IMG/VR virus record: IMGVR_UViG_2737471851_000002
Source of the DNA: a virus
Taxonomy: Duplodnaviria; Heunggongvirae; Uroviricota; Caudoviricetes
Direction: 5' to 3' (one strand)
DNA: 7,556 bases
Part shown: positions 2,971-7,458 of the stretch, piece after piece
Layout: each line of letters opens with the position of its first letter
How positions within the stretch are numbered: the first letter of the stretch is position 1
Program-made: the position numbers and the translations under genes
The notes under the pieces: model-generated
Databases searched by the model: none
The model's input: the letters and a program-made list of their open reading frames with translations, nothing else
Told to the model about the DNA's origin: nothing

Positions 2971-3390
2971 TCGTGTTTCCGCTTCGCCGGAGCGCCTTTT
3001 CGCGCCATGTGATGAGTTCGGTCAGGCTCATGGGATACAGTTCTGATGGCGGCCAGTGAAATATCACTGCCACATCCGCCATCAGGTCATCGACCGACAG
3101 ATTTTTCGGGAACGTCACTGCACCGAGTTCGGCGACAAAAAACCGACCACCTTACCGGCCAGCGCCACAAGGTCAGGCAGTTCCAGCGCGGCGACTTCCT
3201 GCTCGGTCAGCATCGGTGCCGTCATGCGCGGCAGCACCTTAATCAGTGCATCGACTTCTGAGTTTGCGACCGCAGCCAGACTGACACCGCGCAGCGTCCC
3301 CGCACTGGGTTTCATCAGCGTGACCTGTTCGATAACCTGCTCACCACGCCTGACCGGATTGTCCAGGGTAATCACATTTTCTTTGTTCAT
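2963..3390 (-). CDS. E+E': Tail assembly chaperone E+E', made by a programmed -1 frameshift near the end of E; predicted about 141 aa
   Basis: Hand translation of the -1 frame from the slippery site is open for 57 codons (FFVAELGAVTFPKNLSVDDLMADVAVIFHWPPSELYPMSLTELITWREKALRRSGNTNE) and stops at TAA 2965..2963, overlapping the T start as ATGAGTAA. The predicted length is consistent with the roughly 142-aa P2 E+E' product as I recall it. Confidence 0.7.
3115..3390 (-). CDS. E: Tail assembly chaperone E (P2 gpE-like, 91 aa)
   Basis: 91-aa ORF between the tube and tape measure genes. It ends ...VVGFLSPNSVQ, with a TTTTTTG slippery heptamer just before its stop. Confidence 0.85.
   Translation of the reverse strand: MNKENVITLDNPVRRGEQVIEQVTLMKPSAGTLRGVSLAAVANSEVDALIKVLPRMTAPMLTEQEVAALELPDLVALAGKVVGFLSPNSVQ
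3136..3142 (-). other. Slippery heptamer TTTTTTG (within GGTTTTTTG) for the E to E' -1 frameshift
   Basis: Read directly on the minus strand at the G-F-L codons of E. A T6G site is the frameshift site described for the P2 tail operon. Confidence 0.7.
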
Positions 3391-3446: not shown

Positions 3447-3965
3447 TTACAGGCCGATATTGCGGCGGTGTTGCTCCAGCCGGTCGACGCCATTCACCTT
3501 CTCAATCATGTTGATGGTGTCGATTTCGACCAGTTCCTTACCGTCCATCGTCAGCCGGAAATAGGTGCAGACCACGGAGATTTTCGACTCGGTGTCTTCT
3601 CCCTGTTTCCCCTCGCCGGTGTCGATTTCTTTCTGACGTCCACGCATGACCACCTCGACGGCCACAGTTTCGCCGGTATCGTCGCGCTGGTAAGAGCCTG
3701 CAAAACGAATCGGCACAGCATCCACACCGATTGCGGCGTAAAGCTCCCAGATAACCGAATCCGGGAAGCCCCCGAGCGACCACTCCATTGACAGTGCATC
3801 GTCATCAAGGCCGAGGTCTACCGGTGCGCTGCCGTTCATCCCCGCACCGCGATAGTTTTCGAGCTTACGGGTCAGTTTTGGCAGCGTGACGGACTTTGCA
3901 ACGCCCTGATAGCTGTAGCCGTTCAGAAAGACGTTCATTAACTTGAGTTTGCGCGGCATTGCCAT
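3447..3965 (-). CDS. FII: Tail tube protein (P2 gpFII-like, 172 aa)
   Basis: 172-aa ORF directly downstream of the sheath gene. A GGAG Shine-Dalgarno lies in the 12-nt gap after the FI stop. Length and position match P2 FII. Confidence 0.9.
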   Translation of the reverse strand: MAMPRKLKLMNVFLNGYSYQGVAKSVTLPKLTRKLENYRGAGMNGSAPVDLGLDDDALSMEWSLGGFPDSVIWELYAAIGVDAVPIRFAGSYQRDDTGETVAVEVVMRGRQKEIDTGEGKQGEDTESKISVVCTYFRLTMDGKELVEIDTINMIEKVNGVDRLEQHRRNIGL

Positions 3966-3977
3966 CGGTCAGGCTCC

Positions 3978-5168
3978 TTAATTGCTGTTAACCGAGGTGA
4001 CCAGATTTGCCAGGTATTTATCGGTAATACGCTGGCGCAGGGTCAGGTTTTCGAGAGGAGGCACCGGGGTATAGTCGTAGTCGATATACAGTTTTCCGGC
4101 CTTGAGGGTTTCCGCATCGTTGGATTCTTCGCTGAACCAGCAGGTCGCATCCACGATATAGCCGTTTGTTTTCAGCTCACGGAATTTGGCATTGATGCCG
4201 TCAACGATGTCGCGAATCAGCGTTGCGGTGATGGGCTTGTCCACCGCCCACATGTGCGCCTCAGCCATCGTGTCGGCCAGCACCTGCGCGGTGCGGGTGT
4301 AGTTTTCAAAGAGGAACAGCGGGTCATCGGAGCAGGTACGGTTACCCCAGAAGCGGAAACCGTCGCGGCGAATCAGCGTTGTGACGCCTGACTCGTTAAG
4401 CAGGTCAGCATCGGTGCCGGACTCCTGCAAATCCCAGAATACAGATGCGCTGATGCCGGTAACACCGTTCACCCCGACATTGGACAGCGTTTTATGCCAG
4501 CCCTGCTCCTGGTCGATTTTAGCGCGCAGACCCAGCGCACGGGCGGTGGCATACGCGGTGGCAGTGGTACTGGTGACCGTATCCCATGCGAGGAAATCCG
4601 GCCAGATGACCATCAGCTCACGCTGGCTGAAATTCTGACGGTAGGCTTTCACCTCGGAAATGGTTTTACAGCCCCATGCGCTGATATACCCGAAAGCGCG
4701 CAGCTTCTGACAGACTGATGCCAGTGCAACAGCCACCTCTTTGGTGTCCAGTCCCGGCACGCCGAGAATACGCGGTTTAACACCAGTTACCGACTCCGCC
4801 GCCAGCAGGGCTTTCAGTCCGGTGTACTGACCGTTTTCGTCGGTGGTGCCGATGATATTGGAAACGGTCTGCGCGAGTTTCGTTTCTTCGTCGTCGCCGG
4901 TGCCGTCTTCCACACGCACGACAACGGTGACCGGTTTTGACTGGTCGGCGATGGCCTGCAACGATGCCGCCAGCGTGCCTTTTTTACCGGCCTTTGCAAT
5001 TGCGCTCTGCACATTGGTAATCAGCACAGGTTTATTGAGGGGGAAGGTTTCCGCATCCGCATCGCTGGCCGTGCAAACCATGCCGACAATGGCAGTGGAT
5101 ACAGTGGAAATGACGCGGGTGCCATCGTTAATCTCCAGCACCTGCACGCCATGATGATAGTCACTCAT
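3978..5168 (-). CDS. FI: Contractile tail sheath protein (P2 gpFI-like, 396 aa)
   Basis: 396-aa ORF, the same length as I recall for P2 FI, and first gene of the FI-FII-E-T-U-D block. A GGAG Shine-Dalgarno sits 8 nt upstream of the ATG. Confidence 0.9.
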   Translation of the reverse strand: MSDYHHGVQVLEINDGTRVISTVSTAIVGMVCTASDADAETFPLNKPVLITNVQSAIAKAGKKGTLAASLQAIADQSKPVTVVVRVEDGTGDDEETKLAQTVSNIIGTTDENGQYTGLKALLAAESVTGVKPRILGVPGLDTKEVAVALASVCQKLRAFGYISAWGCKTISEVKAYRQNFSQRELMVIWPDFLAWDTVTSTTATAYATARALGLRAKIDQEQGWHKTLSNVGVNGVTGISASVFWDLQESGTDADLLNESGVTTLIRRDGFRFWGNRTCSDDPLFLFENYTRTAQVLADTMAEAHMWAVDKPITATLIRDIVDGINAKFRELKTNGYIVDATCWFSEESNDAETLKAGKLYIDYDYTPVPPLENLTLRQRITDKYLANLVTSVNSN

Positions 5169-5257
5169 CCGTTTAACTCCGTGGTTAATGGGTGCAACTA
5201 TTTTCTGTTGGGCAGTGCATGAGACGCTATTTGACCTGGCTGGTCAGTGGATGAAAC

Positions 5258-5295
5258 AACAGATAAAGAAAAGGCGGGCAATCAGCTTGCCTGCC
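5258..5295 (-). terminator. Candidate rho-independent terminator on the minus strand
   Basis: Minus-strand RNA reads GGCAGGCAA, loop GCUGAU, UUGCCCGCC (9-bp GC-rich stem with one A-C mismatch), followed directly by UUUUCUUUAUCUGUUGUUU. It lies about 130 nt after the stop of the cargo ORF and about 90 nt before the FI start. Confidence 0.45.
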
Positions 5296-5345
5296 TTGAT
5301 TTGTACTCTCTCTGTTTCCAACTGACAAATTACGTAACCAAAATT

Positions 5346-5361
5346 CTGTCAAATCTGACAG
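5346..5361. promoter_or_regulatory. Inverted repeat CTGTCA-AATC-TGACAG (TGT-N8-ACA core); possible regulator binding site
   Basis: Seen directly in the intergenic region between the cargo ORF and FI. A second imperfect dyad, TGT-N9-ACA, lies at 5313..5327. Neither has the TGT-N12-ACA spacing I recall for Ogr-dependent P2 late promoters. Confidence 0.25.
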
Positions 5362-5428
5362 CCTGTTTTGAGCGAAGAGCGGACCTGAGATTGTGGTATG
5401 CTAATTTATGGGGAGCAGGTCAATTGTA

Positions 5429-6253
5429 TTAGTTATCTTTTTGCTTTTCTTTATCCCATTTCTTTGCAGTGGTCTGATACCACTCTTCACGTGCTCGTTG
5501 TTCCTCGGCTCTGTCACTTGAATTATAGTTGTCTGTTTTAATTTTTTTGCTTCCCTGGGAAATCGGCCTCCAGTCTTCTCTAATCTTTTTCATCTGCTCA
5601 GCTATCTGTGTCATTGGACTCCTTGCACCTAAGTAGCTAACCCCCTCGAAAGAAGCCATATCATAAGAATACTCATTCCGCTCTCTTTCAGTTGAGCCCG
5701 GCTGTTTAGACCAGCTAATACTAACAGAATAAACTTGATCTTTAATCTGGTCATACTTACAAAGACTGCTGTTGAGGGAATGGCCGTTTTTCAATACGCT
5801 AACCTTGCTAAATGGTATACCTTTATTTTTTCTATGTTCTGCATTAACCAGTGGGGGATTAAATCCGACTTCAATATCATAGGCTGGGGCATTTCCGGTA
5901 TTAGCAATATTGATATCAAAATAAAAAGCAGCCCAAGAATTTGGTTCAAGAGTCACAACGACATGAGGTTGAACTGATGCGTCAACCATCCTTTTTGTCT
6001 CGTCTGCTAATAGCCTTGTTACTCTCCACAAGAAAAATGTAGCAACTGCTGTTAGCAATGCTGCCAAAGCGGAGATATCGGCACTTAAATCGCCGTTCGT
6101 CTGCGGGTCACTGCCCGGCATCGGGCAAAGGCTCACTTTCGGGCAGGCGTTGGCGACAATCACTGGCGTCAGTGCAGGCCGGACGCTGGTGCAACCGGCG
6201 CACAGCATCAGGCAGGTCAGCGCCATACCAGCGGCGAAAATCCTCGTTTTCAT
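5429..6253 (-). CDS. lysC: LysC-like o-spanin lipoprotein start (embedded in lysB) whose frame runs on into a lower-GC cargo segment; predicted 274-aa chimeric product
   Basis: ATG at 6253..6251 with a GAGG Shine-Dalgarno 9-12 nt upstream, inside lysB in another frame. The N-terminus MKTRIFAAGMALTCLMLCAGC is a lipoprotein signal with a lipobox-like LCAGC, followed by a Pro/Cys-rich segment, as in Rz1/LysC o-spanins. The frame has no stop until 5429..5431. Downstream come a hydrophobic stretch (ISALAALLTAVATFFLW, about 6026..6076) and about 190 aa of unrecognised sequence ending in a charged tail (KKWDKEKQKDN). The start assigned by the ORF track at 6370 has no ribosome binding site and is probably not used. 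Confidence 0.55.
   Translation of the reverse strand: MKTRIFAAGMALTCLMLCAGCTSVRPALTPVIVANACPKVSLCPMPGSDPQTNGDLSADISALAALLTAVATFFLWRVTRLLADETKRMVDASVQPHVVVTLEPNSWAAFYFDINIANTGNAPAYDIEVGFNPPLVNAEHRKNKGIPFSKVSVLKNGHSLNSSLCKYDQIKDQVYSVSISWSKQPGSTERERNEYSYDMASFEGVSYLGARSPMTQIAEQMKKIREDWRPISQGSKKIKTDNYNSSDRAEEQRAREEWYQTTAKKWDKEKQKDN
5430..5990. other. Lower-GC cargo segment (about 40% GC by hand count, against roughly 55-60% in the flanking phage genes)
   Basis: GC was hand-counted in 60-nt blocks and ranged from 33% to 52%. The coding frame uses codons rare in enterobacterial and phage genes (ATA, AGA, AGG). The segment lies between the lysis cassette and the sheath gene, adjacent to FI where P2 has its Z/fun locus. 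Confidence 0.6.
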
Positions 6254-6533
6254 TAAGTAACCTCGTGATGGTTTTCTCGCGCTGTGCTTCACGTTTCGCG
6301 GCGTTCTCCAGTTCCTGACGCAGTGCCACCTGCGCCAGCTCGTTTTTGCCTGCCCTGGTAAGGGCAACATGAAGCTGGTTTTTCAGCATGGTGATGGTCG
6401 TCTGCTGTTCACTGGCGACGTTGTTCGCCCTGTCCAGCGAGGCGCGCAGGCTGGCATTTTTATGTTTCACCAGAAACAGACCGGCCACCGCCAGTGATAA
6501 CAACACAACCAGCACAGTCATCAGCTTTGACAT
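6108..6533 (-). CDS. lysB: i-spanin LysB (Rz-like, 141 aa)
   Basis: N-terminal transmembrane segment (MSKLMTVLVVLLSLAVAGLFLV) followed by a charged, helical periplasmic domain. A second ORF with a lipoprotein signal is embedded in another frame, the Rz/Rz1 arrangement. GAGG Shine-Dalgarno upstream. The start overlaps the lysA 3' end by 13 nt. Confidence 0.85.
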   Translation of the reverse strand: MSKLMTVLVVLLSLAVAGLFLVKHKNASLRASLDRANNVASEQQTTITMLKNQLHVALTRAGKNELAQVALRQELENAAKREAQREKTITRLLNENEDFRRWYGADLPDAVRRLHQRPACTDASDCRQRLPESEPLPDAGQ

Positions 6534-6946
6534 GGTTCCCGCCCCTCAAAACGCTGACGGCAGGCCGTACGTATCAGCCGGAAAAACAGCGACGCCACAA
6601 GATAAATCAGCGCAGTAAAAATCCACCCGGCAGCGACCAGCGAGATAAACGTCACCACCATCACCACCAGAGCCGCCACCCGTCTGCACCACGGCACCGG
6701 CTGCAAAAACAGCGACGTGACAATCTTCACGGCCAGCGATTCCGGCGGCAGCTCCCGTCCGTAGCGTTCCAGTACATACTCAGTGGCATACACACCGACA
6801 CCACCGGCAACCACACAGATAACCGTCGCCAGAATCGCCCAGGTGGCAACAAAACTGACGGCCACGCTCTGCGGGTAAATCAGGGACAGTGCCAGCATCA
6901 GCGCCAGCAACACGTTCAGCATCAGTGAAAGGGATAATTTCTTCAT
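6521..6946 (-). CDS. lysA: LysA-like membrane protein (lysis timing or antiholin-type accessory, 141 aa)
   Basis: 141-aa ORF with several predicted transmembrane helices, sitting between the endolysin and lysB as in P2. GGAG Shine-Dalgarno 9-12 nt upstream. Confidence 0.75.
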   Translation of the reverse strand: MKKLSLSLMLNVLLALMLALSLIYPQSVAVSFVATWAILATVICVVAGGVGVYATEYVLERYGRELPPESLAVKIVTSLFLQPVPWCRRVAALVVMVVTFISLVAAGWIFTALIYLVASLFFRLIRTACRQRFEGREPCQS

Positions 6947-6960
6947 GGTGTTGACTCCGT

Positions 6961-7458
6961 TTAAGCCGGTACGCCGCCAGCGGTACGCCAGACGGTGACC
7001 AGTTTTTCCAGTGAATGCTCACGCTGACCGTAACCGGCACCCGGCAGGGACGCCCAGATATTGCGACAGCGTGAAATGGCGCGCTCAATGCGTCCCGCCC
7101 GGATGTCATCCAGTGCACCGCGTTCGCGGATCAACTGAATGGCGAGCCTGTCCTGTGACAACGGACTGAAATCCGGCAGGGCAAGCTGTTTGCGGTAATG
7201 CGGCCAGAACAGGTAAAGCTGCTGATAGCGACCGGAGGCCGTTGATTTTTCACCGCGACGGTTAAACACCTTCGCCGGTCGGCCATGCGCGAACGGGTGG
7301 TCACTGTAGTCGGTGAAAATTTCCGGCTTTCCGTCCAGTCCGGTGACTATCACGTCATAGCCCCGGTTTTTCGTCAGCGGATGGTTCACCGTCCCTTCGG
7401 ACACGGCCAGCATGTCGAGAAAGGCGGCGATATTCTGATGCGTGTTAATTACCGGCAT
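6961..7458 (-). CDS. K: Endolysin, lambda-R-like lytic transglycosylase (P2 gpK-like, 165 aa)
   Basis: N-terminal motif FLDMLAVSEGT and C-terminal IWASLPGAGYGQREH closely resemble lambda R (LDMLAWSEGT ... IWASLPGAGYGQFEH) as I recall it. Length and position match P2 K. Confidence 0.9.
   Translation of the reverse strand: MPVINTHQNIAAFLDMLAVSEGTVNHPLTKNRGYDVIVTGLDGKPEIFTDYSDHPFAHGRPAKVFNRRGEKSTASGRYQQLYLFWPHYRKQLALPDFSPLSQDRLAIQLIRERGALDDIRAGRIERAISRCRNIWASLPGAGYGQREHSLEKLVTVWRTAGGVPA

Follow-up and report, generated by a model that had tools for sequence, protein, structure and literature searches.

A probable intrinsic terminator abutting the PF promoter in the late region of a P2-like phage

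We identified a hairpin with an adjoining U-rich tract on the minus strand of a 7,556-nucleotide stretch of viral DNA (hereafter the window; IMG/VR record IMGVR_UViG_2737471851_000002), located upstream of the tail sheath gene FI. We propose, with a probability of about 80%, that it is a canonical intrinsic (Rho-independent) terminator of the P2-like phage backbone, positioned upstream of the PF promoter. A sequence-only reading of the window had already suggested a terminator at this place, and the suggestion appears well founded: the anatomy is canonical, the location is intergenic, the score is the highest in the window and the position is conserved across P2-like phages. It would almost certainly be an ordinary, unsurprising terminator of a much-studied phage family, and the records examined do not annotate it. 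Gene assignments based on the list of open reading frames (ORFs), Pfam, phage matches and the annotation of P2-type genomes (Table 1) indicate that the window is a P2-like (Peduovirus) late region in which all real genes are on the minus strand.

Table 1. Positions of the hairpin, the neighbouring promoter and repeat features, and the genes of the window
Feature	Position	Strand	Basis
Terminator stem-loop (putative)	5271..5297	minus	sequence, RNAfold, d-score, homologous hairpins in relatives
5' arm, AAGGCAGGCAA	5297-5287	minus	sequence
Loop, GCUGA, 5 nt	5286-5282	minus	sequence
3' arm, UUGCCCGCCUU	5281-5271	minus	sequence
U-tract, UUUUCUUUAUCU	5261..5272	minus	sequence
Homologue of the P2 PF activator (Ogr-type) binding site	5236..5261	minus	NC_001895 feature aligned to the window
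PF core by homology	5192..5205	minus	alignment to NC_001895
FI tail sheath gene, ATG at 5168	3978..5168	minus	Pfam Phage_sheath_1, E 9.8e-34; ORF list
Right inverted repeat of the Z-region cargo	5294..5385	minus	AJ512682 repeat_region annotation mapped to the window
In-frame lysC::cargo fusion ORF, 274 codons	5429..6253	minus	split match, Pfam LysC
U	29-508	minus	
T (tape measure)	523-2970	minus	
E	3115-3390	minus	
FII (tube)	3447-3965	minus	
lysB	6108-6533	minus	
lysA	6521-6946	minus	
K	6961-7458	minus	

Read on the minus strand from 5297 to 5261, the element is AAGGCAGGCAA GCUGA UUGCCCGCCUU UUCUUUAUCU. The stem contains 11 bp, six of them G-C pairs, including one A.C mismatch (5292/5276). 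The 9-bp core with a single mismatch that had been described earlier (GGCAGGCAA/UUGCCCGCC, A5292.C5276) is correct and is lengthened to 11 bp by two A-U pairs, and the loop, given there as 6 nt, measures 5 nt. The U-rich tract follows the stem directly, as had been claimed. Nine of its 12 bases are U (T-score 4.38), and the first two can pair with A5297 and A5296, closing the stem. RNA folding, which had been proposed as a check, yields -14.5 kcal/mol and z = -2.75 for the minus-strand hairpin (RNAfold), and only 2 of 200 dinucleotide shuffles fold equally well. The hairpin is intergenic, lies on the sense strand for all flanking genes and is found 131 nt past the stop codon of the cargo gene (5429-5431).

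We scanned both strands of the whole window with a d'Aubenton-Carafa-type terminator score, the values of which are approximate. The minus-strand hairpin ranked first, with d = +10.5. Its geometry, its U-tract, its above-chance score and its place past a gene end are those of intrinsic terminators. It shares with E. coli-type intrinsic terminators a GC-rich stem of 9-11 bp, a 5-nt loop, an adjoining U-tract, an intergenic position past a stop codon and orientation specificity. Nothing fundamental separates it from them, although the window allele has the A.C mismatch and a register that is shifted relative to its closest relatives. One other site in the window scored above zero (3162-3143, d = +3.1); it is the T-run of the E/E' frameshift and is coding. 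The hairpin and TTTTTTG at 3135-3163 (minus strand) coincide with the annotated -1 frameshift site that makes P2 E+E', and we rejected this second-best terminator-like site, within a coding region, as a terminator.

For the survey of relatives we collected 160 loci around FI homologues from viral contigs together with P2, R18C, P2-EC53 and E. coli EC6563, and reduced them to 110 distinct 170-nt FI-upstream regions. A terminator was scored where a hairpin of -9 kcal/mol or lower was followed by at least 5 T in 8 nt. By this measure 68 of the 110 regions carry a sense-strand terminator, with the stem ending 93-133 nt from the FI ATG (97-109 nt in all but two of the 68), as against 13/110 on the antisense strand and 9/330 in shuffled regions. 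About nine different stem sequences occupy the same position among these relatives: the E. coli group has AGGCGGGC-N5-GCCCGCCT, and the stems of more distant phages include AACGGGC, AAACGGGC, AGCCCTCC, AAAGCGGGC, GCCCCGC and CGGGCGGGC. The T-tract columns TTTTCTTT are invariant among 33 distinct relatives. The structure is therefore kept in relatives despite sequence change, as in intrinsic terminators; an RNA terminator would be expected to show just this combination of a fixed stem and T-run position with changing stem sequence.

In the close E. coli family, which has diverged too little for the purpose, covariation did not reach significance: 95.5% of cells are paired, there is a single compensatory pair, and 30 of 500 shuffles do as well. 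As the close family is uninformative in this respect, we rely on positional conservation and on stem turnover in the distant relatives. About 40% of the relatives have no hairpin; it is thus common and not essential. One class of relatives without the hairpin has a DNA invertase gene whose end falls within the promoter region, about 60 nt from the FI ATG; another class also lacks the hairpin. The invertase class includes our loci L008, L020, L022 and L027 (about -659 to -60 from the FI ATG) and the phages pro483 and S164. The invertase is of the Hin/Gin type and co-directional with FI, with no terminator between the two genes, and the hairpin has been replaced together with the upstream half of the activator-site region. 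None of the phage records that we found annotates the hairpin as a terminator, nor is a terminator here mentioned in those papers citing Nilsson et al. 2004 (Mol Biol Evol 21:1) and Haggard-Ljungquist et al. 1992 that we consulted.

In cargo-free phages the hairpin follows the stop codon of the tail-fibre gene G within about 5 nt (for example, CCGCAATAAACACAGGCGGGC). In cargo-bearing genomes the inserts are found between the G stop and the hairpin, so that 1.1-2.9 kb separate the G stop from the FI ATG downstream. Given its place directly after G in cargo-free phages, we conclude that this is a backbone terminator upstream of which cargo has been inserted; as judged from gene order, the hairpin belongs to the phage and not to the cargo gene. 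Morons of temperate phages are inserted genes that have their own promoter and a downstream terminator. The arrangement here resembles the moron organization in that two late operons flank the cargo and a terminator beyond it shields the downstream phage genes. It differs in that a terminator of the window type pre-exists in cargo-free genomes and is not brought by the moron, the cargo landing upstream of it.

A comparable terminator is annotated in P2 itself. The P2 'putative rho-independent terminator for V operon' (NC_001895 15639-15666) is likewise proposed to end the tail-fibre operon ahead of the F operon, but differs in sequence (AATGGCAAGTG...CACTCGCCATT). Its place is also different: it follows G immediately, within the AT-rich fun(Z) insert, and the PF-side hairpin is found about 1.9 kb further downstream. 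P2 also has a degenerate copy of the window hairpin (about 17520-17554) directly before the activator site, which is not annotated.

Directly downstream of the hairpin, the window aligns with the Ogr-activated PF promoter as mapped in P2. The NC_001895 feature 'activator binding site; activation of pF promoter' (17555-17583) corresponds to about 5261-5236, where TGTTG...CAGCC of the window aligns with GGTTG...CAACC of the P2 activator-binding site. The homologous site starts directly after the U-tract, which runs straight into it. The 'transcription start site for F operon' (17626-17628) corresponds to about 5194-5192, and the P2 FI ATG (17652) to 5168. By homology, the window has a -10-like GAAAAT at 5205-5200 and a start site, CAC at 5194-5192, that is 24-26 nt upstream of the ATG of FI, the first gene of the F operon (FI FII E E' T U ...). 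The activator site, -10 region, start and FI ATG of P2 thus all align downstream of the hairpin, although the hairpin abuts the annotated promoter and is not part of it. The genomes of phages Wphi and L-413C share 95-96% identity with the window over the 142-bp region that extends from the hairpin to the ATG, and the window promoter is of this sequence type, being only about 76% identical to that of P2.

The sequence-only reading had argued that a terminator here requires either an FI promoter within about 90 bp upstream of the gene or a sheath operon dependent on read-through. The first of these is borne out, with the PF activator site, mapped start and FI ATG of P2 all contained in 100 aligned bp. 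As the P2-mapped features align directly upstream of FI, read-through is not needed to express the sheath operon. We found no sigma-70 consensus promoter in the window, which is consistent with the activator dependence of PF, and no gene for an Ogr-family activator within the window. A 45-aa plus-strand ORF (5188-5325) spans both the PF promoter and the terminator; its equivalents are annotated as hypothetical in several phage records (R18C gp25), and it is probably a spurious call.

From the anatomy and energetics of the hairpin and its place before PF, we predict a terminator that closes the tail-fibre operon (V-W-J-I-H-G) on its 3' side and immediately precedes the activator-dependent promoter. 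RNA polymerase coming from the upstream genes would first copy the GC-rich stem into RNA, then pause at the U-tract and be released about 10 nt before the PF activator-binding site, with RNA 3' ends expected within the U-tract. The upstream traffic would come from G or a cargo gene in intact phages and from the lysC::cargo fusion in the window. We infer an insulating role, in which late transcription from upstream and constitutive moron transcription in the lysogen would be kept out of the tail genes, the activator site would be spared the passage of transcribing polymerases, and FI expression would then depend on PF itself. In annotation, such a terminator would mark where transcription of the tail-fibre/cargo unit of P2-like prophages ends. 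It would also fix the right-hand limit of the G-FI cargo hotspot, where cargo is always upstream of the hairpin, and so may help to delimit defence-gene cassettes. With a U-tract that reaches the activator site of the late promoter behind it, the arrangement may serve as a compact example of operon insulation; it opens no new question.

The efficiency of termination may vary between alleles. The common allele, ...AGGCAGGCGGGCTGATTGCCCGCCTTTT... (GGCAGGCGGGC), folds at -17.7 kcal/mol, and common alleles range from -17.1 to -17.7 kcal/mol. The window allele, GGCAGGCAAGC, has GG replaced by AA in the 5' arm and folds at -14.2 kcal/mol. This change breaks the usual register, and the window fold instead uses an upstream AGGC repeat, with the register shifted by 4 nt and the A.C mismatch. 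The window allele is weaker than usual, and P2's own copy is weaker still, at -11.0 kcal/mol. Termination by the window allele may therefore be less efficient than usual and read-through appreciable. These values could also be taken to mean that the hairpin is a decayed, leaky relic of a G-operon terminator, with a 5' arm mutated both here and in P2, that terminates poorly and has little functional effect, FI expression being set by PF regardless. That many P2-like phages manage without a terminator at this place would agree with such decay. However, the 3' arm and the T-tract are intact, and a fold of -14.5 kcal/mol followed by nine U in a 12-nt tract still scores as a terminator. In addition, the identical allele occurs in E. 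coli EC6563, where it adjoins an intact prophage tail-fibre and cargo region upstream of the tail genes. We consider a relic unlikely.

The hairpin might alternatively act at the DNA level, forming together with the neighbouring right inverted repeat a recombination site or boundary for the exchange of cargo between G and FI. Many kinds of cargo, pointing in either direction, have entered exactly in the interval from the stop of G to the hairpin. GenBank entries AJ512676-AJ512683 annotate flanking inverted repeats of the Z region, and many cargo inserts end with the right-hand repeat, which as annotated ends 2 nt before the canonical hairpin. In the window the right inverted repeat forms the 3'-UTR of the cargo gene and touches the hairpin, the 5' arm of the window allele using the last 4 nt of the repeat. 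Moreover, the hairpin is kept beside divergent cargo (18 distinct loci, P2 fun(Z) included) as well as beside co-directional cargo (34 distinct loci). Its stability does not differ between the two orientations (p = 0.67 for 34 vs 18 loci that are not phylogenetically independent); a lower stability beside divergent genes would have pointed to relaxed selection there. In the genomes with divergent cargo there is nothing obvious that needs termination, which counts against a terminator.

Other observations oppose a DNA-level element. The hairpin occurs in cargo-free genomes, it lies outside the annotated repeat, whose inverted partner I1 covers only 5352-5384, and we found no copy of it at the left cassette boundary. 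Distant relatives swap the whole stem sequence and yet keep a stem and T-run on the sense strand only, a pattern that fits an RNA signal and not a site recognized in DNA or by a protein. We therefore regard a recombination element as very improbable. We also considered the repeat, the hairpin and PF together as a fixed landing pad for the exchange of defence or cargo cassettes, in which the hairpin would set the insertion point, either by folding as DNA or by bounding the homologous exchange. This would explain why the hairpin is retained beside genes that point away from it, but we find it highly unlikely. The right inverted repeat itself is conserved, holds a perfect palindrome, CTGTCAGATTTGACAG (5361-5346), and a second TGTCAG motif, and flanks many kinds of cargo. 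Its partner I1 is a 33-nt sequence, 73% complementary, that lies beside the G stop in E. coli EC6563 (positions 5162-5194 of our locus L003).

The intrinsic terminator that we favour is predicted to act on minus-strand transcripts. The sequence-only reading had stated that the signal is present in the minus-strand sense only, which holds for the tail and not for the fold: the plus-strand tail, GAUUUGUACU, is far poorer than UUUUCUUUAUCU, but the plus-strand hairpin is the more stable one (-18.1 kcal/mol, z -4.6, a perfect 11 bp; RNAfold), because the A.C mismatch becomes a G.U pair. A simple scanner accordingly lists the full 11-bp stem on the plus strand only, and on the minus strand only an inner stem of 5 bp. 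On these grounds the hairpin might be bidirectional and also stop plus-strand (antisense) transcripts leaving the FI region. Bidirectional terminators have a good U-tract on both strands, and the one on the plus strand is poor. The plus-strand hairpin is absent from the six best plus-strand candidates in the d-score scan of the window, the best of which reaches only d = -2.6. The FI side has no plus-strand gene or promoter, and the low antisense count among the relatives also speaks against termination in that direction. We give this alternative very little credence.

We dismiss as having negligible probability the proposal that the hairpin is the 3' end of a small regulatory RNA, made of the 91-nt repeat and the terminator and either derived from the 3'-UTR or independently transcribed: the segment of about 130 nt that links the cargo stop to the terminator stays conserved where the cargos are unrelated and gives a weak Rfam STnc150 match ending at the terminator (18.1 bits, E 0.07-0.09), but the gathering threshold is 60 bits, no sigma-70-like promoter was found, and the TTGACA of the palindrome has a spacer of only 14 nt to any -10-like hexamer. 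The Rfam scan of the region returned sub-threshold matches only, to STnc150 (18 bits) and to a human lncRNA fragment. STnc150 maps to the icdA/STM1239 intergenic region of Salmonella (PMC2515195), an unrelated locus that does not belong to a P2-like phage. Given this placement and the sub-threshold score, we rejected the identity with STnc150 as a chance match combined with a generic resemblance between terminators.

The last ORF before the predicted terminator is unusual. It joins in frame the N-terminus of lysC (o-spanin; 6253-6078), with its ATG at 6253 and an intact lipobox LCAGC, to a cargo protein of the P2-EC53 ORF1 type (6077-5429) that lacks about 15 N-terminal codons. The junction falls at 6074-6077, in a TATC microhomology. 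For the region 5100-6600, matches to known phages and E. coli prophages come only in two separate pieces, which meet at this junction. The FI-side piece is a cargo ORF1 of the P2-EC53/R18C type, a 230-aa 'putative lysogenic conversion protein', and the other is lysB/lysC. Normal genomes have about 10 kb between them (the rest of lysC, R, S, V, W, J, I, H, G and the early cargo region), the loss of which would also remove the cargo promoter. We did not find the exact lysC::cargo junction in species-representative genomes, IMG/VR viral contigs or metagenome contigs, and no contiguous match crosses it in 5,426 complete E. coli genomes or 50,697 phage records. The fusion is either a unique defective prophage that has undergone a deletion or an assembly chimera.

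This qualifies the earlier description of a 'cargo and lysis transcript' insulated from the FI operon. A terminator before FI is supported, but such a transcription unit arises only from the deletion of about 10 kb or from an assembly artefact. In intact relatives the hairpin ends a unit made of the tail-fibre genes (V-G) and the cargo, and here it is the first terminator met from the lysis genes. We identified an intact homologue of the cargo part (window 5429-6077) at positions 3330-4022 of L003. It is 230 aa long and, judging from its sequence, has a hydrophobic N-terminal segment. The intact cargo ORF1 has no Pfam or PADLOC match, and next to it the opposite strand encodes a DUF3606 protein and carries a 92-aa ORF. 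The locus is possibly an uncharacterised lysogenic-conversion or defence cassette.
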